Part shown: piece after piece, positions 2,247 to 31,183 of the stretch
Layout: each line of letters starts with the position of its first letter
Numbering within the stretch: the stretch's first letter is position 1
Source: Flavobacteriaceae bacterium
GTDB lineage: Bacteria > Bacteroidota > Bacteroidia > Flavobacteriales > Flavobacteriaceae
Length of the DNA: 64,000 nucleotides
Direction: 5' to 3'
NCBI GenBank assembly: GCA_965224465.1
Contig: OZ245049.1
Span: 3,185,895 to 3,249,894, forward strand
The notes under the pieces: model-generated
What the model was told of the DNA's origin: nothing
Database searches by the model: none
The model's input: only the letters and a program-made list of their open reading frames with translations
Program-made: the position numbers and the translations under genes

Positions 2247-2282
2247 ATTATTTATATCGGTCATTTTGGATTGCATTGGTAT
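2247..2282 (+). repeat. Solo 3'-terminal fragment (about 36 bp) of the 160-bp MITE-like repeat family
   Basis: The sequence ttatttatatcggtcattttggattgcattggtat matches the 3' end and terminal inverted repeat of full copies such as 6297-6456. Confidence 0.6.
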
Positions 2283-4748: not shown

Positions 4749-4854
4749 CAAAGCTCTTGAGGAAAATAAGTTAAAAATAAATAGTTAGAATCAAGAGTGC
4801 CTTCAGGTACTATTGATTGACAGTTACGTATTATTAAATTTGAAATTCACACTT

Positions 4855-6039
4855 ATGAAAAAACAATTTTTAACAGTATTAGTTGTAATATTTGCAACAG
4901 TACAATTTGGTTATGGCCAAGATAGGAAAGAAGAAAAATCAGTTGCAGTTAACTGGGGAGGATACGTGAAAGCGGATTTTATCTATGATACCCGCCATAC
5001 TTCAGATGCGAGAGAAGGAAATTTTTTAGTATATCCAGCACCAGAAGTTTTTGTAGATGGAAGGGATGTCAATGACGAAGCTAGTTTTAATGGATATGCG
5101 ATTGAGTCTCGGTTGAATGCATCTGTTAAGGGGCCTGATTTTTTCGGAATGAAAACTTTTGGATTCATTGAAGGTCATTTTTTCGGAAACCGTGGAGATG
5201 ATATTAATGGTTTCAGTTTAAGGCATGCTTTTTTAAAGTTATCGAATGATAAAGTGGATATTTTAATTGGTCAATATTGGCATCCGACCTTTGTTACAAA
5301 TGTATCTCCTGGTACTTATGGTTTCAATGCAGGTGTTCCATATCAGGCATTTAATAGAAGTCCACAAATTCGTGTCTCTACAAAAGGAAATGTGAGGTTT
5401 ATTGGAGTTATTTTGACAGAAAGAGATTTTCAAACAGCGGGTAGAGCGAGTGTAAGGTATGCTGCTTTGCCAACTTTACATGCGCAGCTACAGGTTGGTA
5501 GTGATTTAGGTTTCTTAGGTGGTTTTGGGATAAATGTAAAAACTGTTGATACCAAACCCGGATTTAATGAAAACCTAACAAGTATGTCTGTTTTAGCTTA
5601 TGCAAAGGCACAATTAAGCGATAATATTACATGGAAATTACAGGGACTCTATGGAGGGAATATGACAGAGCTTATTCAAGCAGGTGGTTATGGATTAGAT
5701 ATGAACAATGATCCAATTGCTAATAAAACACTATCGGTTTGGACGGAGTTTAGTGGGGATTTTACAAACACCGTAGAATGGGGTCTGTTTGCTGGCTATA
5801 GTGTGGATAATGGCTATGGAGAGCAAGTTGTGGTCGTCCAAAATTCGTCCGTAGAGAGTTCGTATAGAATTTCGCCTAGAATTGGATGGAAATCTGGAAA
5901 AGTAAGGTTAGGGATAGAATTAGATTATTCGGAAGCTCAATATGGGAAGGTAAATCCTACCACAGGAGATTTTGATACTACAGGTATAAAGAGTGTTGGG
6001 AACTTTAGAACAGCTTTGTCTGCGAAGTACAGCTTTTAA
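4855..6039 (+). CDS. putative outer-membrane beta-barrel protein / porin
   Basis: Signal peptide MKKQFLTVLVVIFATVQFGYGQ, Gly/Tyr/aromatic-rich alternating pattern and C-terminal YSF. Start chosen at the in-frame ATG at 4855 inside ORF 4813..6039. Confidence 0.45.
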   Translation: MKKQFLTVLVVIFATVQFGYGQDRKEEKSVAVNWGGYVKADFIYDTRHTSDAREGNFLVYPAPEVFVDGRDVNDEASFNGYAIESRLNASVKGPDFFGMKTFGFIEGHFFGNRGDDINGFSLRHAFLKLSNDKVDILIGQYWHPTFVTNVSPGTYGFNAGVPYQAFNRSPQIRVSTKGNVRFIGVILTERDFQTAGRASVRYAALPTLHAQLQVGSDLGFLGGFGINVKTVDTKPGFNENLTSMSVLAYAKAQLSDNITWKLQGLYGGNMTELIQAGGYGLDMNNDPIANKTLSVWTEFSGDFTNTVEWGLFAGYSVDNGYGEQVVVVQNSSVESSYRISPRIGWKSGKVRLGIELDYSEAQYGKVNPTTGDFDTTGIKSVGNFRTALSAKYSF

Positions 6040-6171
6040 TATTTAGAGAGCTTTGTAAATTTATTGAAAAGGAATCGGAAGATTCCTTTTTTTTATGCCT
6101 TAATTTTAAAGGTATTCCTAAAGGACTGTTTAGGAATCAATACCGAATCGAGTATAGACTTGGTTTTTGTC

Positions 6172-6260
6172 TCGTTTAGATGGAGCATATTAGAGTAGCC
6201 GTAGCTGCCGTTCTGGTTTTAAGAACAAATAAAGGGAAGACTTGAATAAATGTATAGTAA
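6172..6260 (+). repeat. Degenerate partial copy of the MITE-like repeat
   Basis: gtagctgccgttctggtttt matches the family core gtagctatcgttctgttttt (16/20). It lies directly 5' of full copies A and B. Confidence 0.4.
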
Positions 6261-6296: not shown

Positions 6297-6456
6297 ATAC
6301 CAAATACATTTCCAAGAGACGGTTTAGAAATGGAATTATTTTTTATTTTAGCTAGGCGAAAAAAAGAAGGATAGTGTAGCTATCGTTCTGTTTTTCAACA
6401 ACGCTAGAAGGTAAAATAAACTATTTATATCGGTTATTTTGGATTGTAATTGGTAT
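6297..6456 (+). repeat. MITE-like repeat copy A (160 bp, about 30-bp imperfect TIRs)
   Basis: Begins ATACCAAATACATTTCCAAG and ends TTGGATTGTAATTGGTAT (reverse-complementary termini). Internal GATAG-N5-CTATC and CGTTCT...AGAAGG hairpins. Nearly identical to copy B. Confidence 0.85.
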
Positions 6457-6457
6457 C

Positions 6458-6615
6458 ATACCAACTACATTTCCAAGAGACGGTTTAGAAATGGAATTAT
6501 TTTTTGTTTTAGCTAGGCAAAAAAAAGAAGGATAGTGTAGCTATCGTTCTGTTTTTAAACAACGCTAGAAGGTAAAATAAACTATTTATATCGGTTGTTT
6601 TGGATTGTGTGGTAT
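6458..6615 (+). repeat. MITE-like repeat copy B, tandem to copy A with a 1-bp gap
   Basis: Near-identical to copy A. Confidence 0.85.
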
Positions 6616-6962
6616 TATTTATCAATACAGACTAATTTATTAAGAGGTGTCTTTTACATGTCAAAACCACAAGGACTCATTTTGCTTAAACACATTTCAA
6701 CTTGTCATCGCTGTCTATAGTTATGGTTTTGTTTTATAGACAAAAAAAACCAAAAGGATTGGTTCAATCTAATGTGTAGCGTTTTTTTAAGTGCTAAAGG
6801 TTTTGGTTGCGTTTGAAATAGGGATAGGAAATACCAATTGTGGAATGTTTTGTAATTGGGATAAGGAAGTCTATAGAAAAAGAGTCTGTTTTAAAAGCAC
6901 GGTGCTTTTAAAACAGACTCTCGAGAAAAAAAGTGTAAATTATTTTAGGAATAAATAAATTA

Positions 6963-8270
6963 TTAATCCACTATTTCTTCTGGTTTAAATGTAGGTTTCT
7001 TTAAAAATGCGACTAAAACTACCGATATGAGTATTAATACAATGGCAGCATAATAAGCATAGGTATAAGAACCTGTTGCTGCTTTTACACTCGAGGAGAT
7101 TTGAGGACCAATAATTAAAGAAATTCCCCATCCATAATACACCAATCCGTAGTTAGCTCCGTAGTTTTTTAAACCGAAGTAATCGGCAACAATTGAAGGG
7201 GTTACACTAAGTGCAGAACCGTAAGCTACACAGGCAACAACAACTCCAAATACTACCAAAGCTGGAGTAGTGTAGAATGGGAATAAGAACATATTTATAG
7301 CTGCTACCGCATGGATAATATAGTAGGTGTTTTTTCTGCCTATCTTATCCGAAATAATACCACCAGATGCTCTACCAGAAGCATTTGAGATAGAGGCAAT
7401 AGGAACCATTATAGCTAGTAAAGCTGCCACTGTAATAGCGTATTCGCCTGTAGCACCACCTGTTTGGACTTTCATAATATCTGTTACGTTGCTAATGACC
7501 AATGCTCCCGCAGAACAAAAGAATGCATATATTACTAACAGCATCCATGCTTGTGGAGTTTTTGCTACAGTTTTTAAAGCTACACTCGGAGATTTTATTT
7601 GAGTCTCTCTTAAAGGTATAGATTCATCTCTAATAGGTTCTGGTGGTACATATCCTTCTGGAGGGTTTTTTACCATCATTGCCATAGGAAGTCCTATTAT
7701 TAAAATTAAGCCACCTAAGATCATAAGTGTTTGCTCTAGTGTAAAACCTAAGTTTTTCAAGAATAAAACCTCTAATGGGCCTAACCATAAAGCGCCTAAA
7801 CCAAATCCTGCAACCACCAATCCGTTTATCATTCCTTTCTTAGAAGGATGGAACCATTTCATTGCTGCTGGTCGAGGACAAGCATATACGAATCCAATTC
7901 CTAAACCTACAATACCTCCAAAGGTTATAAAGAAAAAATAGGGAGAATGTGTGGCAAAACCAGAAAGTATAGTTCCGATTCCTACCATACATATTCCTAA
8001 AAGCATTACTCTTTTTGGTCCAATTTTGTCTTGTAAGGCACCAGCCAGTATGAGTACCATCGCAAATAACATTCCTCCTATTGAATAGGGCAAGCTTAAT
8101 TGGTCAATGGCCCACTCGTGATATAGTCTACTTCCAGTAGCAGGATCTATAGTGTATTCTAGCGCGTCTTTTAAGTTACTCCAAGTATATAAAATACCGA
8201 CACTAAAGTTAGATAAGACACCCGCGATGAGTACCATTTTTGCGTTTTTTCGAGCTTCTGTAGCTTCCAT
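6963..8270 (-). CDS. MFS transporter (oxalate/formate-antiporter-like)
   Basis: 435 aa with 12 predicted TM helices and an MFS-type charge-loop pattern. Confidence 0.8.
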   Translation of the reverse strand: MEATEARKNAKMVLIAGVLSNFSVGILYTWSNLKDALEYTIDPATGSRLYHEWAIDQLSLPYSIGGMLFAMVLILAGALQDKIGPKRVMLLGICMVGIGTILSGFATHSPYFFFITFGGIVGLGIGFVYACPRPAAMKWFHPSKKGMINGLVVAGFGLGALWLGPLEVLFLKNLGFTLEQTLMILGGLILIIGLPMAMMVKNPPEGYVPPEPIRDESIPLRETQIKSPSVALKTVAKTPQAWMLLVIYAFFCSAGALVISNVTDIMKVQTGGATGEYAITVAALLAIMVPIASISNASGRASGGIISDKIGRKNTYYIIHAVAAINMFLFPFYTTPALVVFGVVVACVAYGSALSVTPSIVADYFGLKNYGANYGLVYYGWGISLIIGPQISSSVKAATGSYTYAYYAAIVLILISVVLVAFLKKPTFKPEEIVD

Positions 8271-8576
8271 AAATAATTATTTTAAGTTAATAAGAGATTT
8301 TTCAGGTTTTTAAAGCAGAATTAAATTTTTCACGACGCTATAGTCAAAGCTATAGAGCCGTAAAAAATTTGTTTTAGGCTTATTTTCAATTATCTATGAA
8401 CAAAGGAACATACAATATGAGCAGCTCTTAAAAGTGAAGTAATAAATGATGATTTTACCGTGGAAATGTAACTTTTAAGGATCAAAAATGAATCAAGAGA
8501 CACTGTTTATTGATGCTTATTGATGGGGATCTGTTTTGAGATTGTAATTTAAACGCTGTTAAAGGTGGTGTTTTGT

Positions 8577-8738
8577 TATCCCAATTAAATTTCCAAGTGA
8601 AGGTTTAGAAATGGAATTATTTTTTGTTTTAGTTAGGTGGAAAATGGAAGGAGAACCTTAGCTATTGTTCTGTTTTTTAACAACACTAGAACGTAAAACA
8701 ACCTATTTATATCGGTCATTTTGAATTGTAATTGGTAT
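8577..8738 (+). repeat. MITE-like repeat copy C
   Basis: Diverged copy (atcccaattaaatttccaag ... ttgaattgtaattggtat). Flanked on both sides by a roughly 57-bp direct repeat (8519-8575 and 8741-8800). Confidence 0.75.
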
Positions 8739-8794
8739 TATTGATGGGCAGCTGTTTTTAGATTGTAATTTAAACACTACTGAAGGAGGTATTT

Positions 8795-8870
8795 TGTTTA
8801 GGCTAAAAATTAGATGGATTCTCATAGCTGCCCTTCTGTTTTTTAACGACTAAGTCGATTCGTTAGAATT
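8795..8870 (+). repeat. Degenerate partial copy of the MITE-like repeat
   Basis: catagctgcccttctgttttttaacgactaag resembles the family core hairpin region; the 5' TIR is missing. Confidence 0.4.
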
Positions 8871-9036
8871 GTATTTCTCTCTCTGAAATGCTGCTCCCGA
8901 TAGAAAATTAATTTTTGGGAAGTATAAACGTGTACTCTTAAAATGAGTTTGTTGATTTAAGAGTGTCGTTTTTTCCTAAAGTTAGGGAAAGGAATGCACG
9001 TTCTGATATAGATGAGTTTTCAAGTAATACCAACTA

Positions 9037-9184
9037 TATTTCCAAGTGACGATTTAGAAATGGAAATATTTTTTGTTTTAGCTAGGCGAAAACTGGAAGG
9101 ATAGCTCCGCTATCGTTCTGTTTTTCAATAACGCTAGAACGTAAAACAACCTATTTATATCGGTTATTTTGCATTGTAATTAGT
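9037..9184 (+). repeat. MITE-like repeat copy D
   Basis: ataccaactatatttccaagtgacg ... ttttgcattgtaattagt, with a GGATAG-ctccg-CTATCG hairpin. Confidence 0.75.
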
Positions 9185-9319
9185 CTAACTGGATAGGAAA
9201 GAAATGCCGGTTGGTTTGAATGCAAGCATCTTCTGTTTTATCTAGGAGGAAAAAACGGAGAAGTATTGATGATTGTGCAGTGTTTGGAGCTGCTATAATC
9301 CAGTAAGATGGTACGGTTT

Positions 9320-15084: not shown

Positions 15085-15717
15085 TTATTTACGTCCAAAA
15101 TCGGCTGGGATCTCTCCCCAAGCTTTGGTTTCCCATTTTAATATTGTCGTGTTGTAATTGTTATTTCTTAGCCATGCTTCCGCACGTTTAATCAAGTCGA
15201 AAAGCGCTTTGTTTTCTTGAGTGATAGGAAGGTTTGTTCGGCATTGTTTTTTTTGAACCCAGCTCATTGCTATTCTCGAGTCAGAATAAATGGGGACATT
15301 GGATTTATGAATTTTTAAAAAACCTAGACCATGTACCAATGCTAAAAATTCACCTATGTTATTTGTTCCTTTTTTGTAAGGACCTTGAGTAAAATATTGT
15401 TTTTTTGATTTAGAGTCAACGCCTCTATATTCCATAACTCCTGGATTTCCTGCGCAAGCGGCATCTACAGAAATGGAAGGATATACAGGAAGTCCTATTT
15501 TTTTAAGCTCTTCTCTCGATAGAATTACTTTTTTGGTGTCTTTTCCTACGTAATCAAAATAGTTTTCTTTTAAGGCTTTTTCTGCTTCGTTTTTAGAAAC
15601 AAAAGATTTGTATTGTGCTCCTTTAAAATCAGTAATGTGTTTTTTACAGACTTTCCAAGAGGTGAAAACACCTGTTTTATGACCTTGCCATACTACATAG
15701 TACTTTTTCTTTCCCAT
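15085..15717 (-). CDS. rnhA: ribonuclease HI with an N-terminal hybrid-binding domain
   Basis: N-terminal YYVVWQGHKTGVF...W (HBD-type), then an RNase H fold with conserved acidic residues. Confidence 0.8.
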   Translation of the reverse strand: MGKKKYYVVWQGHKTGVFTSWKVCKKHITDFKGAQYKSFVSKNEAEKALKENYFDYVGKDTKKVILSREELKKIGLPVYPSISVDAACAGNPGVMEYRGVDSKSKKQYFTQGPYKKGTNNIGEFLALVHGLGFLKIHKSNVPIYSDSRIAMSWVQKKQCRTNLPITQENKALFDLIKRAEAWLRNNNYNTTILKWETKAWGEIPADFGRK

Positions 15718-15720
15718 AGG

Positions 15721-16293
15721 CTAGTTTTTCATTTTTAAAAGTACGGATTCAATAACCTGAGGAAAGTTGTTTTGCTCTAGGATGTGAATTTTTGCAGCTA
15801 CATCAGCGGCAGTGTCATTTGGAGAAAGACTTGTTTTACATTGAAAAATGATGGCTCCTTCGTCATAATGTTCATTTACATAGTGGATGGTAATTCCTGT
15901 TTCAATTTCTTTATTTGCGACCACCGCTTGGTGAACATTGCTCCCAAACATGCCTTTTCCTCCGTATTTAGGAAGCAGTGCAGGGTGGATGTTAATCACC
16001 TTATTTGGGAAGTTTTCTAATAAATTACTTGGAACTTTCCATAAAAAACCAGCTAAAATTATAATGTCTGCTTCTTTTTTTAGCAACTCTAAAACACGAG
16101 TACCTGTAAAAAAGTCAGCTTTACCGAATGTTAAGTTACTTACATTAAGTCTTTTAGCTCTGATCAAAACTTTGGCATCCTTGTTGTTAGATAAAACATA
16201 AGTAACACGTGCGATGTTACTGTTTTGAAAATAGGTAATGATGTTTTCGGCATTGGATCCAGATCCAGAAGCCAGAATTACAATTCTTCTCAT
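15721..16293 (-). CDS. purN: phosphoribosylglycinamide formyltransferase
   Basis: 190 aa with the formyltransferase core motif HPSLLP-like (HPALLPKYGG); 3 bp from rnhA. Confidence 0.88.
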   Translation of the reverse strand: MRRIVILASGSGSNAENIITYFQNSNIARVTYVLSNNKDAKVLIRAKRLNVSNLTFGKADFFTGTRVLELLKKEADIIILAGFLWKVPSNLLENFPNKVINIHPALLPKYGGKGMFGSNVHQAVVANKEIETGITIHYVNEHYDEGAIIFQCKTSLSPNDTAADVAAKIHILEQNNFPQVIESVLLKMKN

Positions 16294-16479
16294 AATAGTT
16301 TGGTTGCATTTGTTGCAAAATAAAACAAAAATACTAACAAATACAGGGTGTAGACGAAAAACTTAAGGGTTTGAAATAACTTTAAATTAGAGTTAATTTG
16401 ATTTATTATGGATAAAAGATTTTCAATTAGAGAAAGTTTTTTATTTTTGCCGTGTAATTAAATTTAAAATTAAAAAATT

Positions 16480-16716
16480 ATGTCAGACATTTCATCAAGA
16501 GTAAAAGCCATTATCGTAGATAAATTAGGCGTTGACGAAAATGAAGTAACAATTGAAGCGAGCTTCACAAATGATTTAGGAGCAGATTCACTTGACACTG
16601 TTGAACTAATCATGGAATTCGAAAAAGAATTTGATATTCAAATTCCAGATGACCAAGCTGAAAACATTGGAACTGTAGGTCAAGCAATTAGCTATATAGA
16701 AGACGCAAAAAAGTAA
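16480..16716 (+). CDS. acpP: acyl carrier protein
   Basis: 78 aa with the DSLD phosphopantetheine attachment motif ([16 protein letters not shown]). Confidence 0.95.
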
Positions 16717-16722
16717 TTTTAT

Positions 16723-17973
16723 ATGGAATTAAAACGAGTTGTAGTAACTGGACTTGGTGCATTAACACCAATTGGCAACAATGTAGAAGAGTATTGGAAA
16801 GGTTTAATTAACGGTGTTAGTGGAGCTGCTCCCATTACTCATTTTGATGCCTCCAAGTTCAAGACTCGTTTTGCTTGCGAGCTAAAGAATTTTAATGTTA
16901 ATGATTTCATTAACAGGAAAGATGCTCGAAAAATGGACAAGTTTACTCAGTATGCTATGGTAGCTGCTGATGAAGCTGTCCTAAATTCTAAGTTAGACTT
17001 AGAAAAAGTAGATAAAGACAGGGTTGGTGTAATTTGGGGAGCCGGAGTTGGTGGATTGGAAACATTTCAGAACGAAGTGTTGAATTTTGCGAAAGGCGAT
17101 GGTACTCCTAAATTTAACCCCTTCTTTATTCCTAAGATGATTCCAGATATTGCCCCAGGGTATATCTCGATTAAATATGGATTTAGAGGGCCAAACTTTA
17201 CCACGGTTTCTGCTTGTGCCTCCTCTGCCAATGCTATTATAGATGCTTTGAATTATATCCGTTTAGGATATGCAGATGTGATGGTTACGGGAGGGTCAGA
17301 ATCAGCAGTTATTGAATCTGGTATGGCTGGGTTTAATGCAATGCATGCTTTGTCTACAAGAAACGATGATCCAGCAACAGCCTCACGACCTTTTGACAAA
17401 GGAAGAGACGGTTTTGTGCTAGGAGAAGGTGCTGGAGCATTAATCTTAGAGGAATATGAACATGCGATGGCTAGGGGTGCTAAAATCTACGCAGAAGTAG
17501 GTGGAGGTGGACTGTCGGCAGATGCACATCATATCACTGCGCCTCATCCAGAAGGATTGGGAGCGAAGCTTGTAATGTTAAATTGTATCAAAGATGCTGG
17601 CTTAAAACCAGAAGATGTAGATGCCATCAATATGCATGGGACTTCTACACCACTTGGTGATATTGCAGAATCAAAAGCAATTAAAGCAGTTTTTGGAGAA
17701 CATGCTTATAAAATAAATATAAATTCTACCAAATCAATGACAGGTCATTTGTTAGGTGCAGCCGGAGCTATAGAAGCAATTGCTTCTATTTTATCAATAA
17801 ATAACGGAATCGTACCTCCAACAATTAATCATTTTGAAGATGATGATCAGATCGATAGCAAGTTAAACTTTACGTTTAATAAGCCTCAGAAACGTGTTAT
17901 AAAAGTTGCGATGAGCAATACATTTGGATTTGGAGGGCACAATGCCTGTGTGCTTTTCAAAAAATTTGATTAA
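16723..17973 (+). CDS. fabF: 3-oxoacyl-ACP synthase II
   Basis: 416 aa with active-site Cys context (TVSACASS) and HGTST / GHLLGAAG motifs. Confidence 0.95.
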   Translation: MELKRVVVTGLGALTPIGNNVEEYWKGLINGVSGAAPITHFDASKFKTRFACELKNFNVNDFINRKDARKMDKFTQYAMVAADEAVLNSKLDLEKVDKDRVGVIWGAGVGGLETFQNEVLNFAKGDGTPKFNPFFIPKMIPDIAPGYISIKYGFRGPNFTTVSACASSANAIIDALNYIRLGYADVMVTGGSESAVIESGMAGFNAMHALSTRNDDPATASRPFDKGRDGFVLGEGAGALILEEYEHAMARGAKIYAEVGGGGLSADAHHITAPHPEGLGAKLVMLNCIKDAGLKPEDVDAINMHGTSTPLGDIAESKAIKAVFGEHAYKININSTKSMTGHLLGAAGAIEAIASILSINNGIVPPTINHFEDDDQIDSKLNFTFNKPQKRVIKVAMSNTFGFGGHNACVLFKKFD

Positions 17974-17988
17974 GCAGGATAATTTTGA

Positions 17989-18726
17989 ATGAACTTCATT
18001 CGTAAAATAATAAAATCTCGGTCTCCCGAAGATGAGGCGTTTTATAATGATTTAAAACTTATTATGGGTTTTGGACCTAAGAATTTGAATTATTATAGAA
18101 AGGCTTTCTTACATCGTTCTTTAAAAAAGTTAGATGATATTGGGAATCCGAGAAATTATGAACGCTTAGAATTTTTAGGCGATGCCATGTTGGGCGGTGT
18201 AATCGCTTCTTACTTATTTAAAAAAGTTCCCGCTGGAGATGAAGGCTATTTGACTCAAATGAGGTCAAAAATTGTAAGTCGTGATCACTTGAACGAATTG
18301 GGACGTGATTTAAATTTAACGAAATTTGTCGAAAGCAATATTTCACGTAAAAAATTTGGAGAAAATATTCATGGAAATATTTTCGAAGCTTTAGTTGGAG
18401 CCATCTATTTGGATAGAGGCTACAATTATTGTAAAAGATTTGTATACCATTGCGTAATCAAACCTTATGTAGATATTCCTAAACTAGAAGGTAAAATTAC
18501 AAGTTATAAAAGTCTTTTTATAGAGTGGTGTCAGAAAGAAAAACATAGTTTCGAATTTCAAATATACGATGATACTGGGATAGAAAATCTCAAGTACTTT
18601 GGAGTTCGTTTGTTTTTAAATGGAAAAGTTATTTCTAAAGGAAGAGGTACCTCTAAAAAGAAAGCAGAAGAAGTTGCTGCCAAGCGTGGCTATTTTGTAT
18701 TTCAAGAGGATATTTCTAAAATGTAA
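17989..18726 (+). CDS. rnc: ribonuclease III
   Basis: ERLEFLGDA RNase III signature plus a C-terminal dsRBD. Confidence 0.9.
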   Translation: MNFIRKIIKSRSPEDEAFYNDLKLIMGFGPKNLNYYRKAFLHRSLKKLDDIGNPRNYERLEFLGDAMLGGVIASYLFKKVPAGDEGYLTQMRSKIVSRDHLNELGRDLNLTKFVESNISRKKFGENIHGNIFEALVGAIYLDRGYNYCKRFVYHCVIKPYVDIPKLEGKITSYKSLFIEWCQKEKHSFEFQIYDDTGIENLKYFGVRLFLNGKVISKGRGTSKKKAEEVAAKRGYFVFQEDISKM

Positions 18727-18810
18727 CCTACTGCACTAAAACGGTTTCGTAGAAAAAACCGTAGAGTCTCCTAACAATCCGTAACTTTGCCGTCAGTTTA
18801 ATAGAGATAT

Positions 18811-19269
18811 ATGCCTGTATTAACATTGGAAATGCCAGAGGATTATGTACTAGTCGGAATTCACTCAGTAGAGGAGGGTTATAGACTAGCGTACTTGTTT
18901 AATCAATGTTTAAACAGCTCATTTGTACTGTCTAAGATAAGTTTAGACTTTAAAAATAATACCGTACAGTTTCCTATATTTGAATGGGAGGACGCAGAAA
19001 ATTTTTCCAGTCAATATTTGATTGGAAATAAACAAATTACAAACTCAGAACCGTCAGAAGGTTTTGATTTGTTTAGTGGTCATATTAATACCATCCATTA
19101 TTTGATACCAGAGAAAAGAAAAATTGACTATTTCTTAAAGATAGAAGGTGACATTTGTGATAAAAAATTACGTAATTTCATGAAGCAAATAAATCAAATA
19201 CCTCAGGTACAATCTGCATATTTTGTAGATACAAACACAATAAAATCAACAAAAAATTTAATATTTTAA
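18811..19269 (+). CDS. IPExxxVDY-family protein (Bacteroidota-specific)
   Basis: 152 aa containing the motif IPEKRKIDY. The conserved position between rnc and pyk matches this family. Confidence 0.55.
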   Translation: MPVLTLEMPEDYVLVGIHSVEEGYRLAYLFNQCLNSSFVLSKISLDFKNNTVQFPIFEWEDAENFSSQYLIGNKQITNSEPSEGFDLFSGHINTIHYLIPEKRKIDYFLKIEGDICDKKLRNFMKQINQIPQVQSAYFVDTNTIKSTKNLIF

Positions 19270-19272
19270 TAC

Positions 19273-20700
19273 ATGTCAAATAACAGAAAAAAAACAAAAA
19301 TAGTTGCCACTTTAGGTCCAGCTTGCGATTCACCAGGGTTAATTGAAAAGATGATGACCGAAGGGGTAAACGTATTTAGAATAAATTTTTCTCATGCGGT
19401 ATACGAAGACGTAAAAACACGTGTGGATCTTATTAGAGAAATTAATGTACGACGTGGTTTTAACGTTGCAATATTAGCCGATTTACAAGGGCCTAAGCTT
19501 AGAGTAGGGGTAATGCAAGAAGGTGTGTTTTTAAATAAAGGAGACGAATTTATATTTACTACAGAAAAATGTGAAGGAACCAATAAAAAGGCCTTTATGA
19601 CCTATCAACAGTTTCCTCAAGATGTAAGTGTAGGTGAACATATCTTAGTAGATGACGGAAAATTAATGTTTGAAGTTACAGCTACTGATGGTAAAACCAA
19701 TGTTGTTTCAAAAGTATTAAGAGGAGGTAAATTAGGTTCTAAAAAAGGAGTGAATTTACCAAATACTAATATCTCTCAACCTGCATTGACAGAAAAAGAT
19801 ATTCAAGATGCATTATTTGCAATTAGTATAGAAGCAGATTGGATTGCCCTGTCCTTCGTTAGAACAGCTGATGATTTAAAACTATTAAATAAATTAATAG
19901 CTGATAATTCTGATTATAAAATTCCAGTAATTGCAAAAATAGAAAAGCCAGAAGCGTTAAGAAATATCAACGAAATTACAGTTCACTGTGATGGTTTGAT
20001 GGTTGCTCGTGGTGATTTAGGTGTAGAAGTTCCAATGGCAAAAGTTCCATTGATTCAAAAACGATTGGTTTTGGCTGCTAAAAAAGCGAGAATACCTGTT
20101 ATTATTGCTACACAAATGATGGAAAGCATGATTACGAGTCAAGTTCCTACAAGAGCTGAGGTAAATGATGTTGCCAATTCTATTATGGATGGTGCAGATG
20201 CAGTAATGCTTTCTGGAGAAACTGCCATGGGAGAATTTCCATTAGAAGTGATTCAACAAATGCGTACCATTATTGAAAGCGTTGAGAATTCACCTTTAAT
20301 TACAGTTCCAGAAACACAGACACGTTGTCTAAATAATAGATATATATCTAAAATTATTTGTCATCAAGCAGCCATTACTGCAAACAGTGTGAATGCAGAG
20401 ATGATTTCAACACTTACAAATTCTGGATATACAGCATTCCAAATTTCTGCTTGGAGACCTAAATCTAATATTGTAGCCTTTACATCTAATAGAAGAATTT
20501 TAGCAATGTTAAACTTGCTATGGGGTGTGAAAGCTGTCTATTATGATAAACTTGTAAGTACAGATGATACCATAGAAGACATTAACAAATTAGCCGAAGA
20601 AAAAGGGTTTGTTAAAAAAGGAGATTTCGTCGTAAATTTATCTTCTATGCCTGTAGAGGAAAAAGGAATGGTAAACACACTACGTATTTCTGAGATTTAA
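19273..20700 (+). CDS. pyk: pyruvate kinase
   Basis: 475 aa with IVATLGP and MVARGDLG motifs. Confidence 0.95.
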   Translation: MSNNRKKTKIVATLGPACDSPGLIEKMMTEGVNVFRINFSHAVYEDVKTRVDLIREINVRRGFNVAILADLQGPKLRVGVMQEGVFLNKGDEFIFTTEKCEGTNKKAFMTYQQFPQDVSVGEHILVDDGKLMFEVTATDGKTNVVSKVLRGGKLGSKKGVNLPNTNISQPALTEKDIQDALFAISIEADWIALSFVRTADDLKLLNKLIADNSDYKIPVIAKIEKPEALRNINEITVHCDGLMVARGDLGVEVPMAKVPLIQKRLVLAAKKARIPVIIATQMMESMITSQVPTRAEVNDVANSIMDGADAVMLSGETAMGEFPLEVIQQMRTIIESVENSPLITVPETQTRCLNNRYISKIICHQAAITANSVNAEMISTLTNSGYTAFQISAWRPKSNIVAFTSNRRILAMLNLLWGVKAVYYDKLVSTDDTIEDINKLAEEKGFVKKGDFVVNLSSMPVEEKGMVNTLRISEI

Positions 20701-21782
20701 TCATCTAGTAAAGCATATAGCGCAAAAGACGCTAACCAATGGGCTCCAGCATATTCGCTTGAGTCCATTTTTTTGTAACTATGGTTAAAGTGTGCATTGC
20801 CTAAGGCAATCATTTTGTTGTTATTTAAGCTTTTTCCTAATTCGAATAAACACCAAGCTCTGCTGTAATTTAAGCCGTCTAAATGTGCTAATTTTCCGTC
20901 TGAACGATCTGTGACTTCAGCTATTTGAAGCAATGCGGATGGGTTTTTTCTAAATCCAGGTAAAAATGAATCTAACCATGGTAGGAATTCTTCTTTAGAG
21001 AGTATCTTTTGCATCAAGGCTGCTTCTTGTAAGCAAGGTGATAAAAAATCAAAACCTCCAGGTTCCCAAGAAATTGGACATTGACTGTCTTCTAAGTAGT
21101 ATTCTTTGGCTTTTGATATAATTATTTGCTCTAATTTTGAATTGTATTTATGGGCATAGTCAAATGCAAAGGAGAGTCCAAAAGCGGTGTTTGGATGTTC
21201 ACCTACACGTATTGGGTGATTTAATTTTTGTAAAAAAGAAATGTATTTTGTTTCTATAAGTGAGACCAAGGGTTGTAAGTTTTTTGCCATCAGTTTTGCT
21301 TCGGGGATGTCCCAGTCATTCAGTGATTCAGCTACTTTTAAAAGCCATGCCCAACCATAAGTGCGTTCAAAATGTTTGGCAGATGCAGCGTTAAAATAGG
21401 CGACTTCTTGTTGGATATTCTCTGCGGTTAAACTCGCTTGTAATTTCTTTAAAATAGCGTCTCTATGTCCGAATTTCGGAAACGTTTTTAGAATGTTAAT
21501 TAGTGTCCAATGACCATGTACAGCAGAGTGCCAATCAAAACAGCCATAAAAAGCAGGATGTAACGTTGCGGGCTCTTTTAAATCGTTGGCGTTTTCTAAG
21601 ACTTGTCCTAACTTGTTTGGGTATTCTTGATCCATACATTCATAGGCAAAATGATAGAGGTAATTAGCACGTTCCACAGTGAGTTCTGGTGTGTTTAGAA
21701 GAACAGTTTTTACTTCTTTTTGGACATCACTACACCCATTTAATACTAAGAGAATGGTGCAAACAGCTGCTATTTTTTTCAT
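20697..21782 (-). CDS. lipoprotein of unknown function (DUF2891-like size)
   Basis: Lipobox-type signal peptide (LVLNGCSD); 361 aa. Convergent with pyk, with a 4-bp overlap. Confidence 0.45.
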   Translation of the reverse strand: MKKIAAVCTILLVLNGCSDVQKEVKTVLLNTPELTVERANYLYHFAYECMDQEYPNKLGQVLENANDLKEPATLHPAFYGCFDWHSAVHGHWTLINILKTFPKFGHRDAILKKLQASLTAENIQQEVAYFNAASAKHFERTYGWAWLLKVAESLNDWDIPEAKLMAKNLQPLVSLIETKYISFLQKLNHPIRVGEHPNTAFGLSFAFDYAHKYNSKLEQIIISKAKEYYLEDSQCPISWEPGGFDFLSPCLQEAALMQKILSKEEFLPWLDSFLPGFRKNPSALLQIAEVTDRSDGKLAHLDGLNYSRAWCLFELGKSLNNNKMIALGNAHFNHSYKKMDSSEYAGAHWLASFALYALLDD

Positions 21783-21813
21783 GGTAGGAATCTTCTTTGT
21801 TGGTTTATTTAAA

Positions 21814-24186
21814 TTATTTAGACGCTTTTACTTTCGTTAGCTCTATGTGCTTTTTTAAAATAATGGCATCATTCAATACAAAAGGCATGGGCATCATGTA
21901 TGCCTCCCTTGGTTTGATAGTGAATTGAGGATTTGAAAGTAAATCAAAACTAGCTTCTAATACCGTCAAATTTAATGTTTCCTTTTTAGAAACAATCATT
22001 TTTAGGTCGATTATTTCGTTGGGGTCGGTTAAATAATAGGAAAGAATTGTTCCATAACTTTTAATTGGAACTTTTGTCTTTTTCATAACAACATCATTTA
22101 TAACAAACAATTTTAAGTCAATCGGATTTTTACTTATCAATTCAATCCGATTTGCATTCCGCTCGCTTCTTATACGGAGATGTACAAATCGATTGTTTCC
22201 TCTAATAGTATCTGTAATAATGTTGATTGTAGGTGCTTTAAATAATTTAACTTCCGCATTTTGATGCCAGTGAATTGCTGTTTTGTACTTGCTTTTAATT
22301 AGTGTAGAATCATAACTTCCTAAAAGGGCTTGCTCTCCTATAAATTGTTTTGTAAAAGAATCTGTATGTCTATTGTAAGTGGACCAGTATGCTTTTTGGC
22401 TGTCCGTTTCTAGTGTGTAAATAATGCTGTTTGGTTGCCTGTTATTTACGCTATAGCCAGCAGTGTAAAAGGCAGTAGCAAAGGCAAGGCATGCTATTAA
22501 AAAAGCAAGGTTTCCTAGGGGTTTTCTAAAAGTAAATGAATGTATTATTGGGATAGCCAGTCCTAGGAGTAAGATGGTGAAAAGAGCACTTAGACCTATC
22601 ATTTTTAAACCCAATCCTACAGGGAACATTTTTATTAGAGGGACAAAGATAAGAAGTGTTGGAATGAGTAGTACACTCCATAAGAGCGGTGTCCATTTGT
22701 TGTTTTTAGTCGAAAAAATAAGGTGTATAAGCATTAGAATTCCTGTACTTAATGGAATACTAAAAAAACCTGCTCCTTTTAAGTAATATGCAATAGTAAA
22801 ATTTATAATAATCCACACAATCAAAGGTGCAACAAGCAAATTCTGAATGTTGATTTTAAGAAAATAAGAACGGTAAAACCGTAAAAATATAGCGACACTT
22901 AATGCTACGAATAATAGGATGTAATAATACCCATTATACGTAAATCCATGCAGTATGTCTTGGTATTGTGGGTGTATAATAAGCAATAGTTTCCACCCGA
23001 AAAAAGCAACTGAGACGGAGCTAATTAATGCGCCTAAAAAAGGGATAAACCCTTTTAATATTTCAAGAACAGCTAATTTTCTTTTAGACAGTCCAATGGC
23101 TAAAATAACCAGAAAAATAAAAAAGAGTATATAAATAATAGGCTGTACCCAAGCAAATGGATACAGGGCAAGACCTATTCCTGGGAAATTAAAATAAACC
23201 AGGTCTTTACTGCTGTTTAAATTATTTAAATCGGTATTTGCATAGTAATTGATTAATGGGATTATGTAAGAGGCTTGATGTTTGAACGTGTTTATATCCA
23301 ATCGTTCGTATGAATCTTGTACAGTGTGATAATCAAAATGATCTCCAATAAAGGCGAAATTGAAGCCGTTGATGTCTCCGTCTTCTCTAAAAATAGTTAA
23401 ATCGGTATCGTTAGGTAGCATTTTGTAAATACTATACATTAGTGAATTCGCTACTGGATAGGGAGTATTTGCCTTGTTAAATGTCTTTATAAGTTTTTCG
23501 TTCCCTCCATTTGTTTCTAATAACATATAACTAGGACCTCCACTTCCTCTGGCTTCTAAATTAAGGACAAGTCCTATGTTTTTTCCCCAAGCATGGTTGT
23601 TTACAAATGCACTTGCTCCTAATAAACCGAGCTCTTCTGCATCGGAAATACAGATGATAATATCGTTTTTATAGCTTGTTTTTTGTGCTAAAATAGCCCT
23701 TACAGATTCCAAAATGGTTACCACGCCACTGGCTGCATCGCTGGCGCCAAGGGAAGAATGAGGGTTAGAATCATAATGAGAAAGCAATAGTAATGGTTTT
23801 GTAGAATTGGTTCCAGGAATACGTGCGATGATATTCTTTGTGTGTGTAGCGGCTCTCCATTTACTGTTTACAGCTACTTGTGATTGGATCTCAACCTCTA
23901 AACCCATTTCCTGTAGCGCTGTTTTGATGTAATTTAATACAAAATCATGATTTTTACTTCCTGTAAAGTGAGGAGTGTGAGTTATCTTTTTAAGATGGAA
24001 TAAGGCTTTTTCGGTAGAAAATTCCGTATTTTTCACTGTTATAGGAATGGAATTATCAGGCATTAACGATTGAAAACTTAGATAGGAAATGCTGCAAATT
24101 AATAAGAGTGAAAACAGGGAAATATAACGAGGTTTAGATCTAGGCATGGGTTGTAGTATTTTGTTAAATAGTGATAAAATGTTCAA
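21814..24186 (-). CDS. M28-family zinc peptidase fused to a polytopic membrane domain
   Basis: N-terminal peptidase core with candidate M28-type metal ligands (HYDS, DAEELG) and zinc-aminopeptidase architecture, followed by about 9 predicted TM helices; 790 aa. Confidence 0.7.
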   Translation of the reverse strand: MNILSLFNKILQPMPRSKPRYISLFSLLLICSISYLSFQSLMPDNSIPITVKNTEFSTEKALFHLKKITHTPHFTGSKNHDFVLNYIKTALQEMGLEVEIQSQVAVNSKWRAATHTKNIIARIPGTNSTKPLLLLSHYDSNPHSSLGASDAASGVVTILESVRAILAQKTSYKNDIIICISDAEELGLLGASAFVNNHAWGKNIGLVLNLEARGSGGPSYMLLETNGGNEKLIKTFNKANTPYPVANSLMYSIYKMLPNDTDLTIFREDGDINGFNFAFIGDHFDYHTVQDSYERLDINTFKHQASYIIPLINYYANTDLNNLNSSKDLVYFNFPGIGLALYPFAWVQPIIYILFFIFLVILAIGLSKRKLAVLEILKGFIPFLGALISSVSVAFFGWKLLLIIHPQYQDILHGFTYNGYYYILLFVALSVAIFLRFYRSYFLKINIQNLLVAPLIVWIIINFTIAYYLKGAGFFSIPLSTGILMLIHLIFSTKNNKWTPLLWSVLLIPTLLIFVPLIKMFPVGLGLKMIGLSALFTILLLGLAIPIIHSFTFRKPLGNLAFLIACLAFATAFYTAGYSVNNRQPNSIIYTLETDSQKAYWSTYNRHTDSFTKQFIGEQALLGSYDSTLIKSKYKTAIHWHQNAEVKLFKAPTINIITDTIRGNNRFVHLRIRSERNANRIELISKNPIDLKLFVINDVVMKKTKVPIKSYGTILSYYLTDPNEIIDLKMIVSKKETLNLTVLEASFDLLSNPQFTIKPREAYMMPMPFVLNDAIILKKHIELTKVKASK

Positions 24187-24285
24187 TTATAGCAGGTGAA
24201 ATTTAGTTAAAAGTACTAAAAATTCAAAAGAAAGTGTGAATATAAACTTATTTTACTATATTGGAAGAACACAAAACCAACTATA

Positions 24286-24735
24286 ATGTCAATAAAACAT
24301 CTAAAACCAGTAAAAGGAAGCGTAGTAGAATCAAAAGAACGTAAGATCTTAGTAGCAGATTATATGATTACAAATATAGTGACGTTTTCACCAGATCAAT
24401 TAATTGTTAATGTTATGGATATATTGATAAAAAATAATATTTCAGGAGGACCTGTTGTGAATGAGAAAAACGAATTGCTCGGTATTGTTTCTGAGAGGGA
24501 TTGTATGAAACAAATTAGTGAAAGTCGATATTTCAACATGCCTATTCCTGATGCTATTGTAGACAATCACATGGCAAAAGATGTAGATACGATGGATAAA
24601 AACATGACCATTTTTGATGCCGCTAATATTTTTTATTCTTCTGGAAGGAAACGGTTTCCAATTGTGGAAAATGGTAAATTGATAGGTCAAATAAGTAGAA
24701 GAGATATTGTAAAAGCAGCATTAGATATGATGTAA
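24286..24735 (+). CDS. CBS domain pair protein
   Basis: 149 aa with two CBS repeats. The stop codon abuts MITE-like copy E. Confidence 0.8.
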   Translation: MSIKHLKPVKGSVVESKERKILVADYMITNIVTFSPDQLIVNVMDILIKNNISGGPVVNEKNELLGIVSERDCMKQISESRYFNMPIPDAIVDNHMAKDVDTMDKNMTIFDAANIFYSSGRKRFPIVENGKLIGQISRRDIVKAALDMM

Positions 24736-24893
24736 TATCAACTACATTTCCAAGTGACGGTTTAGAAATCGAATTATTTTTTGTTTTAGCTAGGTGAGAA
24801 ATCTTAGGATAGTTAGCCTATCGTTCTATTTTTAACAACGTTAGAACGTAAAATAAACTATTTATATCGGTCATTTTGGGTTGTATTTGGTGT
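24735..24893 (+). repeat. MITE-like repeat copy E
   Basis: atatcaactacatttccaagtgacgg ... ttttgggttgtatttggtgt. It starts at the last base of the CBS gene stop codon. Confidence 0.8.
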
Positions 24894-24920
24894 AATAAGA
24901 GTTTTTATTGGTTTTATCCA

Positions 24921-25016
24921 ATAAAAAAAACCGTTCAAAGATGAACGGTTTTTTTATCTCTTACCGAAGTAAGTTAGATTGAAACTTTCCCCAAATTTTC
25001 AATTTCTCTAATAAGT
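24921..25016 (-). ncRNA. candidate small RNA, copy a of a 3-copy family
   Basis: On the minus strand: -7 box TATCTTTG (TAnnTTTG); 7-bp hairpin ATTGAAA-N12-TTTCAAT; hairpin CTTAC-UUCG-GTAAG; intrinsic terminator CCGTTCA-tctt-TGAACGG followed by U8. Ends are approximate. Confidence 0.5.
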
Positions 25017-25211
25017 ATGGTACAAAGATATAGATGTTTTAGAATAGCATTGTTCGGGAAAACACATGATTAATTGTGGTTTTGCATAAAACAGAAGTTT
25101 TACTTTTTTTATCCCACTTGAAGGGTTTAATCCTATGAGGATAGGTCTTTAAAAACGAATTAGTTACCGTTTTCTTGGGGCAAATTTTTGAGGGATTATG
25201 TGGTTGGTATT

Positions 25212-25370
25212 ATACCAAATACATTCCCAAGTGATGGTTTAGAAATGGAATTATTTTTTGTTTTAGTTGTCGAAATGGATGGATAGCCTTGCTATTGGTA
25301 TATTTTTTAACAATGCTAGAACGTGAAATGAACTATTTATATCGATAATTTGGGATTGGAATTACTTGGT
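25212..25370 (+). repeat. MITE-like repeat copy F
   Basis: ataccaaatacattcccaagtgatgg ... tttgggattggaattacttggt. Confidence 0.75.
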
Positions 25371-25389
25371 TAAAATTATTTTTTTCAAC

Positions 25390-25485
25390 AAAAAAAACCG
25401 TTCAAAGATGAACGGTTTTTTTATCTCTTACCGAAGTAAGTTAGATTGAAACTTTCCCCAAATTTTCAATTTCTCTAATAAGTAT
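25390..25485 (-). ncRNA. candidate small RNA, copy b
   Basis: Identical core to copy a, with -7 box TATCTTTG on the minus strand at about 25490-25497. Confidence 0.5.
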
Positions 25486-25770
25486 GGTACAAAGATAGGA
25501 ATGTTATAGGATGTATTTGTTCGGTAAAGCGCAGGTAAGACTGTGGGTTTTCGTATTGGATTGAATTTTTTTTTCTGTGCGTTTGTAAAGTTGAGATCTA
25601 TGTATGCTTTACACTCATTTGATTTGTTAAATCTGTATTATTATATTGAATTATTTTTTGCAAGATAAAAGCTAAAATAGCTAGCATAGCTTTTTTATGG
25701 AAAGTTGGTTTTGAAAATTGGTTGTGAAAAGGAACCCCTATAATGCGACATTATAAAGTCAAATGAGGCT

Positions 25771-25915
25771 AATACCAACTATATTTCCATATGACGGTCT
25801 ATAAATTAAATTGTTTTTTGTTTTAGCTAGGCGAAAAATTTAAAGATAGCCTTCGCTATCGTTCTATTTTTTAACAACGTTAGAACGTAAAACAAACTAT
25901 TTATATCGGTGATTT
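25771..25915 (+). repeat. MITE-like repeat copy G, 5' part; interrupted by IS66 and resumes at 27923-27950
   Basis: ataccaactatatttccatatgacgg ... ctatttatatcggtgattt | IS | ggtgattttgattgtaattgtatac. Confidence 0.8.
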
Positions 25916-25994
25916 GTAAGCGTACGGAGAACTACATCTTGTAAGAAGTTAAAAATAATCTAATTTTTGCATCTAAACAAAAACGAAAATATAA

Positions 25995-26348
25995 ATGTTA
26001 GGATTAGGTACAGAACACACGTATTATTATCACTTATCTGCAGTTGATATGCGAAAAGGATTTAATGGATTAAGTGGATTAGTTAGTGAGCACATGGAAC
26101 AAGAGCGAGATAGAAATAGTGTTTATGCATTTATCAATAAGCAAAAAAATAAACTAAAACTTCTTCATTGGCGACCTGGAGGATTTGTACTGTATTATAA
26201 ACGATTGGAACGAGGTATTTTTGAGCTTCCAAAATACGACATTGAAGATGGATTAGTAGTTTTGAGTTATACCCAAATGGTTATGGTTTTAGACGGAATT
26301 AGTATTATAAATACTCAGAAAAACGAACGTTATTTAGAGGCTAAATAA
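25995..26348 (+). CDS. tnpB: IS66-family accessory protein TnpB (Orf2-like)
   Basis: 117 aa with the GFNGLSGLV motif typical of IS66 Orf2. Confidence 0.85.
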   Translation: MLGLGTEHTYYYHLSAVDMRKGFNGLSGLVSEHMEQERDRNSVYAFINKQKNKLKLLHWRPGGFVLYYKRLERGIFELPKYDIEDGLVVLSYTQMVMVLDGISIINTQKNERYLEAK

Positions 26349-26391
26349 TTCAATAAAACTGTAGGTTTTACCTGCTATTTAGTCTTGTTTT

Positions 26392-27894: not shown

Positions 27895-27992
27895 TCAAGG
27901 GTGTACTTTACCGTACGCTTACGGTGATTTTGATTGTAATTGTATACGTTGTTCTTTAGAAATAGATTCTCTAATCAAAATGTTATTAACCA

Positions 27993-28090
27993 AAAAAAAC
28001 CATTCATAGCTGAATGGTTTTTTTAGTGCTTACCTAAATAAGCATTAGATTGAAACTTTCCCCAAATTTTCAATTTCTCTAATAAGTATG
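27993..28090 (-). ncRNA. candidate small RNA, copy c (diverged)
   Basis: -7 box TATATTTG with TTG 19 nt upstream. Hairpin 1 is identical. Hairpin 2 is GCTTA-N6-TAAGC and the terminator is CCATTCA...TGAATGG; both keep pairing through compensatory changes relative to copies a and b. Confidence 0.5.
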
Positions 28091-28179
28091 GTACAAATAT
28101 ATACATATAGGTAGCATAGTCAATTCGGGTTAACACAGGTTAAATTGTGGTTTTCTGTAAATTAAAAACGCATCGTTTT

Positions 28180-29937: not shown

Positions 29938-30131
29938 TTTGTAAATTTTTGTTGCAAATTTAAGGAAATCCTACGTATCTGTGCTTTTTTTTTAAGGGAA
30001 TGTCTTGTGTCTATATTTAGTTTGGCTATAAAAATCATTGAGAGTGCTTAAATTAGCGGCAAAACAATTAAATGGCAAATTCTATTCCTATTGATTAATT
30101 TGTATCTTTGTAATCTAAAATTGTTAAAAGC

Positions 30132-30407
30132 ATGTTTTTATTTATTAGTGGAGCAGAGATTTTTGTGGTCATAGCATTAGCTGTAATGCTTTTTGGAGCC
30201 GACAAATTACCGGAAATTGCACGTGGCTTAGGAAAGGGTATGCGTCAAGTAAAAGATGCTACAAACGATATAAAACGAGAAATTAAAACCAGTGCTAAAG
30301 ATGCAAATTTAGATATTGATGTTGTGACTGATATAAAAGAGCAAGTAAATAAGGTACGTGATAATTTCGAGGATTTTACAGGGCCTATCAAACGTAATTT
30401 TAAATAA
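30132..30407 (+). CDS. tatA: twin-arginine translocase subunit TatA/E
   Basis: 91 aa with an N-terminal TM helix followed by FG..KLPE and an amphipathic helix. Confidence 0.85.
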   Translation: MFLFISGAEIFVVIALAVMLFGADKLPEIARGLGKGMRQVKDATNDIKREIKTSAKDANLDIDVVTDIKEQVNKVRDNFEDFTGPIKRNFK

Positions 30408-30412
30408 TATTT

Positions 30413-30964: not shown

Positions 30965-30984
30965 TAAACAGCGAAGGGCTTATG

Positions 30985-31075: not shown

Positions 31076-31183
31076 GTAGAAGCTCTTACGTGTTATTTTT
31101 GGGTATAAAAAAACTCCCACCTAAGTGAGAGTTTTAATACTGTATTCTATAATCTTTCATCGAAGGTTTAATTCCCCGAGGCT

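Follow-up and report, generated by a model that had tools for sequence, protein, structure and literature searches.

A ~160-bp palindromic repeat of marine and subseafloor Flavobacteriaceae is very probably a miniature non-coding transposable element inserting at TAA and TTA

The 64-kb stretch of Flavobacteriaceae bacterium contig OZ245049.1 analyzed here (the window, to which all coordinates without a locus name refer) carries a non-coding repeat of about 160 bp, which we interpret below as a transposable element of the miniature inverted-repeat type (MITE). Nine near-full copies are present, one of them split by the insertion of an IS66-family element, along with at least five truncated or decayed copies; the repeat makes up roughly 3% of the window and is confined to five intergenic regions. 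The family had been proposed from a reading of the sequence alone (the original prediction), and it is real: all of the full copies listed at that time were recovered by a repeat search of the window, in which the overlapping repeat families D1-D9 cover the copies, by Tandem Repeats Finder, which reports the head-to-tail pair at 6297-6608 with a period of 161 and 96% matches, and by nhmmer. An nhmmer profile built from eight copies and run on the window recovered the nine near-full copies with E-values of 1e-35 to 1e-49. The near-full copies are listed here with their flanking trinucleotides, which are treated below as target-site duplications (TSDs).

6297-6456, plus strand: full copy, first of the head-to-tail pair; core 6298-6455, flanks TTA and TCA; nhmmer E 8e-49
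6458-6615, plus strand: full copy, 96% identical to the 6297 copy; right flank TTA
8578-8738, plus strand: full copy, TSD TTA/TTA; part of a 221-bp local duplication
9027-9186, plus strand: full copy, TSD TAA/TAA
24735-24893, plus strand: full copy, TSD TAA/TAA, formed on the left by the stop codon (TAA) of CBS-domain gene 24286-24735
25212-25369, plus strand: full copy, the most diverged (73-83% identity to the others)
25771-25915, plus strand: 5' 145 bp of the split copy, interrupted by the IS66-family insertion
27931-27945, plus strand: 3' end of the split copy, after the second IS66 TSD copy GGTGATTT (27923-27930)
35526-35682, minus strand: full copy, TSD TAA/TAA; upstream of the LysE-type gene 34801-35472
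36142-36302, minus strand: full copy, TSD TAA/TAA; ends 17 bp before the start of the open reading frame (ORF) 36319-36984

The truncated and decayed copies follow; the decayed ones were judged by their local alignment score to the element against 200 shuffles.

30987-31057, minus strand: truncated copy, element positions 87-158; nhmmer E 2e-16
2247-2279, plus strand: solo 3'-terminal fragment followed by TTA; repeat D7; nhmmer E 0.0015 (2247-2276)
6154-6256, plus strand: decayed copy, element positions 34-134; score 47.5, shuffle maximum 41
8782-8850, plus strand: decayed, internally deleted copy, element positions 31-107; score 53, shuffle maximum 50.5; nhmmer E 0.016
9202-9306, plus strand: decayed copy, element positions 18-119; score 43.5, shuffle maximum 37.5; nhmmer E 0.011 (9219-9257)

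Most of the coordinates first given for these copies stand, with two corrections: the copy at 9027 had been started 10 nt late, at 9037, and the end of the copy at 35526 moves from 35692 to 35682. The split copy does continue beyond the insertion, as had been described, but it resumes at 27931 and not at 27923, because positions 27923-27930 are the 8-bp IS66 TSD. The partial copies are also borne out: that at 30987-31057 is solid, that at 2247 is weak but real, and those at 6154-6256 and 8782-8850, though decayed, score above all 200 of the 200 shuffles; the decayed copy at about 9202-9306 is an addition to the earlier list. All copies are intergenic, as predicted, but their placement at gene 3' ends does not hold for 35526 and 36142, which lie between divergent gene starts. 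The fragment at 2247-2279 sits 10 bp past the stop codon of ureF (Pfam UreF), in the 90-bp spacer before ORF 2328-2960, and is a remnant within an apparent urease accessory-gene operon. Copy 25212 is abutted by TTA and a possible 3'-end remnant of another copy (25199-25211, TGTGGTTGGTA), a likeness seen by eye only; local alignment of 25089-25211 did not beat shuffles.

The core of the element is about 158 bp long (TACCAAnTACATTTCCAAGTGAC...GGTnATTTTGGATTGTAATTGGTA), with a consensus of 161 nt (ATACCAATTACATTTCCAAGTGACGG...CGGTTATTTTGGATTGTAATTGGTAT) and a range of 151-184 bp among copies. Its terminal inverted repeats (TIRs) span about 25-30 bp and are imperfect, although in the consensus they match perfectly over the first 12 nt (TACCAATTACA-). 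Inverted-repeat termini had been part of the original prediction; the palindrome in fact extends over the entire element, with about 55 Watson-Crick pairs at about 80 arm-against-arm positions.

To examine the sites of insertion, flanks were aligned with the core set as TACC...GGTA (TACCAA...TTGGTA), and 17 insertions were scored, from the window and from loci in other genomes, whose names begin with L. The 3-bp flanks are identical in 13 of these insertions (seven TAA/TAA, five TTA/TTA and one GTA/GTA, at L016); this count comprises 12 insertions scored as matches and window copy 35526, read as TAA/TAA. There is no clean discordance of TAA with TTA among the insertions scored, and the chance of seven A and five T being perfectly concordant is about 1/792. 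As the variable base agrees as a direct and not as an inverted repeat, the flanks are target-site duplications rather than part of the TIR. Duplication models of 2 bp (TA), 4 bp and 5 bp misfit the flanks, leaving 3 bp around the core TACC...GGTA as the one model that fits. At four of the 17 insertions (window copy 24735, L001, L002 and L031) the adjoining gene ends in a TAA stop codon that is also the TSD.

Independent evidence of insertion is provided by locus L007 (3886-4206, minus strand) of the metagenome-assembled genome (MAG) NORP150, where a complete copy lies inside another: outer positions 1-65 lead into the inner copy, which is bordered by TAA at either end, and outer positions 64-158 come after it. 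In the window, copies 6297 and 6458 are separated by exactly 3 bp (TCA), a spacer of exactly one TSD length; this junction looks like the product either of insertion beside an existing end or of unequal exchange at the TSD.

Copies at unrelated loci in other genomes were found by pattern scans of sequence collections, which were aimed at an internal block of the element. An exact-pattern scan of GTDB representatives, one genome per species, gave seven loci, all in three Flavobacteriaceae MAGs (NORP129, NORP150 and NORP167) from the subseafloor aquifer of North Pond. A looser pattern matched 25 loci in a metagenome collection, three of which hold the element; the other 22 are chance matches to an AT-rich pattern. 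Altogether the other genomes contribute 11 copies on 10 contigs, counting the nested pair of L007 as two, and their flanks are not related. These copies are likewise intergenic and adjoin genes for cytochrome bd oxidase, a peroxiredoxin, COX3, an NlpC/P60 protein and an alpha-galactosidase, among others; loci L001-L007 show no homology to the window outside the element. No match was obtained by blastn in plasmids, phages or 5,426 complete E. coli genomes, or by exact-pattern scans in viral contigs. So far, then, the family has been found only in one little-studied marine and subseafloor lineage of Flavobacteriaceae.

Between species, copies reach 92% identity, against about 80% for the flanking genes. 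The roughly 40 bp 5' of the copies at L001 (5338-5380) and L002 (7136-7179) are also alike, with 85% identity over 206 bp including the element, which reflects either a longer common 5' extension or insertion of both copies into another repeat. As a measure of host relatedness, the AspRS encoded in the window is 93% identical to that of NORP167, and the window MFS transporter is 82% identical to its homologue in Gelidibacter salicanalis, where the MFS locus is non-syntenic and holds no copy.

Consideration of the relationships among copies gives insight into how the family spread. Window copies are about 76-90% identical to one another, with the tandem pair at 96%, and the copy most similar to a given one is generally not its neighbor, so most derive from separate insertions. 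Purely local tandem or segmental duplication of a single intergenic sequence is a different account, and one to which we give hardly any credence; it is refuted as the sole mechanism by copies scattered over 34 kb in both orientations amid unrelated flanks, by the closer relatives that most neighbors have elsewhere, and by the copies in three other MAGs and three metagenome contigs. The original prediction had named restriction to this locus as an outcome that would count against a dispersed family, and the same three MAGs and three contigs answer it. Local duplication does explain two events: the 6297/6458 pair, with its period of 161 and 96% identity, and a 221-bp unit at 8517-8738 that is repeated at 8738-8850 (repeat D10). 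This unit consists of a 61-bp flank (TTATTGATGGG...GTTTTGTT; 8517-8577, the same as 8738-8798) and a MITE, and the second MITE of the tandem is internally deleted and decayed. Decayed copies lie beside better-preserved ones in the same spacers, a sign that a small number of permissive 'nests' have taken up insertions again and again over a long period.

A comparison with a syntenic relative bears directly on insertion. NORP167 contig NVRM01000128 (L034) is collinear with window positions 15208-34653 at about 74-82% nucleotide identity. The spacer between aspS and the CBS-domain gene is 3,444 bp long in the window and contains three copies and the IS66 element; its counterpart in L034 is 468 bp long and contains none (nhmmer, no match at E<=10). 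The sequence found at the stop codon of the CBS gene is ...TAAaaagagtat... in the relative and ...TAA(MITE)TAAtaagagttt... in the window, which is consistent with precise insertion. Because NORP167 carries the family elsewhere (L003 and L004), what differs is where the element has inserted, not whether the lineage has it. The copy-free spacer represents an empty site or insertion polymorphism between related genomes, and the original prediction had suggested looking for such polymorphism between strains; the genomes compared here are only about 80% identical.

The same contig lacks window positions 30910-33601 (about 2.7 kb), and there the PAP2 and MR_MLE genes lie 188 bp apart. In the window this stretch holds a Band_7/SPFH gene (31184-32827, minus strand) and a 191-amino-acid ORF (32828-33403, minus strand), with the truncated copy 30987-31057 at one edge; the arrangement suggests an indel or a rearrangement at a MITE.

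The aspS-CBS spacer contains two further kinds of feature. Its three MITE copies are separated by a 177-bp repeat (D5), which is a candidate minus-strand gene for a small RNA (sRNA) of about 100 nt, and one of the copies is interrupted by the IS66-family element.

25916-27922, plus strand: IS66-family element with 21-nt inverted repeats beginning GTAAGCGTACGG and the 8-bp TSD GGTGATTT, inserted into a MITE copy
About 28092 to 27988, 25487 to 25385 and 25020 to 24918, minus strand: candidate sRNA gene, three tandem copies downstream of aspS (repeat D5)
L034 4338-4446 and 4538-4648, plus strand: candidate sRNA gene, two copies in the syntenic contig of NORP167

The IS66-family element encodes TnpB_IS66 (117 amino acids, 25995-26348) and a DDE_Tnp_IS66 transposase (500 amino acids, 26392-27894), as assigned by Pfam, and is complete but for the usual first ORF. 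It is the sole insertion sequence (IS) in the window and is unrelated to the MITE. The possibility that the repeats are fragments of one known IS, which had been raised as a refutation, fails on this point, the only IS of the window having inserted into a copy with an 8-bp TSD. Derivation of the MITE from IS66 is ruled out, since its ends (TACCAA...TTGGTA) and 3-bp TSD contrast with GTAAGCG... and 8 bp in IS66.

For the candidate sRNA, all five copies share 100% identity over their first 47 nt (CCATACTTATTAGAGAAATTGAAAATTTGGGGAAAGTTTCAATCTAA), against about 80% for the flanking genes. Its second hairpin shows compensatory changes (CTTAC/GTAAG, GTCTAC/GTAGAC, GCTTAT/GTAAGC), the stem of its intrinsic terminator carries a G-C to A-U change, and a Bacteroidetes-type -7 box (TAtcTTTG) lies upstream; it has no Rfam match. 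A MITE copy lies 15-45 nt past each of the three sRNA terminators in the window. Elsewhere in the window there are perfect hairpins of 20 bp at 6881-6921 (minus strand) and 18 bp at 42988-43023; the former is followed by a T run, 42 nt past the stop of the MFS/OFA transporter gene 6963-8270, and is likely to be an intrinsic terminator.

In agreement with the original prediction, the element encodes no protein. An open frame (..IPNTFPxDGLEMELFFVLARRKxEG) crosses the 5' arm in three copies, but a small peptide gene is ruled out by a stop in window copy 25771, a frameshift in L023 and loss of the internal ATG in at least five copies, so that the sole frame is broken or without an ATG in several copies. 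Nor is it a known RNA family: Rfam gave no match for the whole window at gathering thresholds, and relaxed thresholds over 24700-25800, a region with two complete copies in it, brought up nothing beyond weak terminator-like matches.

The palindrome is predicted to fold strongly, and with a preference for one strand. As RNA, window copy 6297 has a folding energy of -50.4 kcal/mol (z -7.0) and its complement one of -32.8 kcal/mol, and the plus strand of the element folds better in 19 of 20 copies (means -41.4 versus -30.7 kcal/mol). Comparison of arm against arm, with all mismatches treated alike, gives 107 G-T cells and 42 A-C cells. Scored on the hairpin of the consensus, 96% of cells pair; compensatory double changes occur in four pairs, versus 1.0 +/- 0.9 in shuffles; these cells are not independent, most G-U pairs being inherited from the consensus, and the structure was predicted and scored on the same alignment. 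Positions 27-57 (GGTTTAGAAATGGAATTATTTTTTGTTTTAG) differ from the consensus at 4.3% of cells, against 12.9% elsewhere (p about 7e-5), in the nine window copies, which were not picked by any search pattern and so carry no ascertainment bias.

These features, with the high identity of cross-species copies relative to their flanking genes, raise the possibility that the repeat arrived by transposition and is now kept as an exapted structured repeat for its transcribed hairpin, which would stabilize or process mRNA or act as a weak terminator. Roles of this sort at the mRNA level have been reported for ERIC and Correia elements. Such exaptation extends the MITE explanation and does not exclude it. 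We consider it possible but rather unlikely, in view of the occurrence of copies in both orientations relative to genes (co-oriented after the gene 4813-6039 and the CBS gene, antisense between the acyltransferase and MFS genes) and the decay or truncation of many copies. Furthermore, inspection by eye reveals neither a Bacteroidetes promoter box (TAnnTTTG) on either strand of the consensus nor a strong terminator, and only two copies have an apical hairpin that is marked as terminator-like by a pattern scan. In its most specific form, the proposal would be that purifying selection has acted after insertion on the block at 27-57 and on the one-strand hairpin, and that the host has come to use the family as an RNA module within its transcripts, for example as a hairpin in 3' untranslated or inter-cistronic regions, perhaps preferring sites past terminators and stop codons, including those beside the three tandem sRNA genes. 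We regard this form as unlikely; were it true, the module might set transcript ends or stability.

A simpler RNA-based account is that the copies are themselves sRNA genes or cis-regulatory RNA motifs spread by ordinary duplication. The strong, strand-biased fold, the intergenic location and the proximity to apparent sRNA genes at 24918-28092 fit this account, whereas the 3-bp TSDs, the nested insertion and the unrelated flanks at every locus do not. Neither a promoter nor a terminator was seen within the element, Rfam yields no match at either threshold, and the element is absent from the syntenic site of the relative although the neighboring sRNA-like genes are conserved there. We therefore regard this account as highly improbable.

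Taken together, the matching 3-bp TSDs, the nested copy, the copies at unrelated loci and the copy-free syntenic spacer support the reading first put forward, and very probably the ~160-bp repeat is a miniature non-coding transposable element inserting at TAA/TTA. We propose that a transposase encoded elsewhere in the genome would move the element in trans by binding its imperfect TIRs, and that insertion at T(A/T)A would proceed through a 3-bp staggered cut, leaving the target trinucleotide duplicated on both sides. Surviving copies would be filtered to intergenic DNA, with the TAA stop codon of a neighboring gene often serving as the target; the gene would keep its stop codon, because TAA is duplicated on insertion. 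Within a neighboring transcript, a copy would form a long imperfect hairpin.

The enzyme is probably a DDE transposase of the IS5 superfamily type, by analogy of its duplications. Duplications of 3 bp with the sequence TNA or TWA are made by three groups within the IS5 family (IS1031, IS427 and ISL2) and by the eukaryotic PIF/Harbinger elements. An IS30-family enzyme is a less likely second candidate, which the end-to-end junction of copies brings to mind by analogy: IS30-family elements make 2-3-bp duplications and insert beside their own ends. The IS3 family is unlikely, as the element has no TG...CA ends, and the length of the TSD excludes IS630 (TA) and IS66 (8 bp). IS5-family elements of the IS1031, IS427 and ISL2 groups do occur in Bacteroidetes (Table 2, PMC3196728).

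A different mode of movement, as single-stranded DNA, would make the repeat a REP/RAYT-type or IS200/IS605-derived palindromic element (PATE). The whole element being a hairpin would suit this, as would the better folding of one strand, given that G-T wobble also stabilizes hairpins of single-stranded DNA. Such elements, however, have asymmetric ends and no TSD, while here a co-varying trinucleotide stands on both flanks of inverted-repeat ends; at 158 bp the element far exceeds the length of a REP, and no RAYT or TnpA(Y1) gene was seen among the minority of window ORFs scanned. We thus judge this origin to be extremely unlikely.

Several observations weigh against the interpretation as a MITE. 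Three insertions lack a clean TSD: L005 (AAA/TTA), L031 (TAA/GCA) and L004 (TCA on the left, with an ambiguous right end). The empty site in L034 is not base-perfect, its spacer having diverged such that only TAA and about 8 nt align. The outermost termini, with 10-15% divergence, are less conserved than the internal block, where constraint on the TIRs alone would predict the opposite. Copies differ by 10-25%, and the family may no longer be active. Finally, no autonomous element with these termini was found by a fuzzy TIR search of the window and 34 loci; all of the matches were MITE copies, none solitary or widely spaced. The pattern scans of the sequence collections, aimed at an internal block, brought up no such element either. 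An inverted-repeat scan of the window returned only the IS66 repeats as IS-type ends, and where ORFs adjoin copies in other genomes they encode housekeeping functions and no transposase.

Variants among the copies point to subfamilies. Those at L004 (2969-3149, minus strand) and L016 (807-957, plus strand) share an extra internal module (ACTCAACTsGATTGGGTrAryyGTTTATATC) that is not in the window copies; the center of L016 is otherwise wholly different, and the copy at L023 (1784-1967, minus strand) has an insertion of about 25 nt in its apical loop. The longer variants might be closer to the parent element.

The family is relevant to annotation, to assembly, since such repeats can break MAG contigs, and to the reading of regulatory regions in this lineage, where the occupied spacers adjoin aspS, the urease operon, the MFS transporter and the tandem sRNA-like genes. 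Its 3-bp TWA signature is a handle for finding the responsible transposase, and the family could serve as a lineage marker. The general understanding of how MITEs work is unchanged.

The element appears to represent a new family within a familiar class, the bacterial MITEs: it is short and non-coding, with TIRs, TSDs and dispersed copies at non-homologous sites. Named MITE families were compared by description, and searching the literature by text for Flavobacteriaceae MITEs turned up no named family resembling it. MITEs of Bacteroidota have been catalogued in bulk, with 81,380 clusters from 46,051 genomes (PMC11602168), and MITECca01 of Cardinium, also in the Bacteroidota, derives from the IS982-family element ISCca4 (PMC9769881). 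Like our element, MITECca01 is a non-coding sequence of less than 300 bp with TIRs, lineage-specific, and present in many mostly intergenic copies, some inside other mobile elements. MITECca01 has a known parent IS with the same ends, however, whereas no parent was found for the present element in the window or the 34 loci; our element is in addition an imperfect palindrome over its full length with a 3-bp TWA duplication.

The Correia elements of Neisseria (CREE/NEMIS) are similar in length (about 100-160 bp), in their TIRs of about 26 bp, in the duplication of an A/T target and in their intergenic location, often by genes; they are often co-transcribed, and their parent transposase is unknown or absent. 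Correia elements duplicate a 2-bp TA. Here the duplication is 3 bp (TAA, TTA and once GTA), the sequence and the phylum differ, and no IHF site or outward promoter has been identified. The 3-bp duplication, the misfit of the 2-bp TA model and the Flavobacteriaceae hosts together rule out a Correia element. ERIC/IRU sequences of Enterobacteriaceae and Vibrio resemble our element in being imperfect palindromes over their whole length (about 127 bp for ERIC), intergenic, present in both orientations and able to form an RNA hairpin if transcribed, but the taxon differs and a 3-bp TSD is clear here. ERIC was defined in E. coli, and blastn of the consensus (word size 11) gave no match at E<=0.01 in the 5,426 complete genomes of that species, which rules it out. 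The TSD agrees in both length and sequence (TAA/TTA) with that of the IS5 superfamily (IS1031, IS427 and ISL2; PIF/Harbinger and the Tourist MITEs); the termini of our element start with TACC, whereas IS5-family ends are typically GG/GA, and it is from the duplicated target that we infer the link to a transposase of this type.

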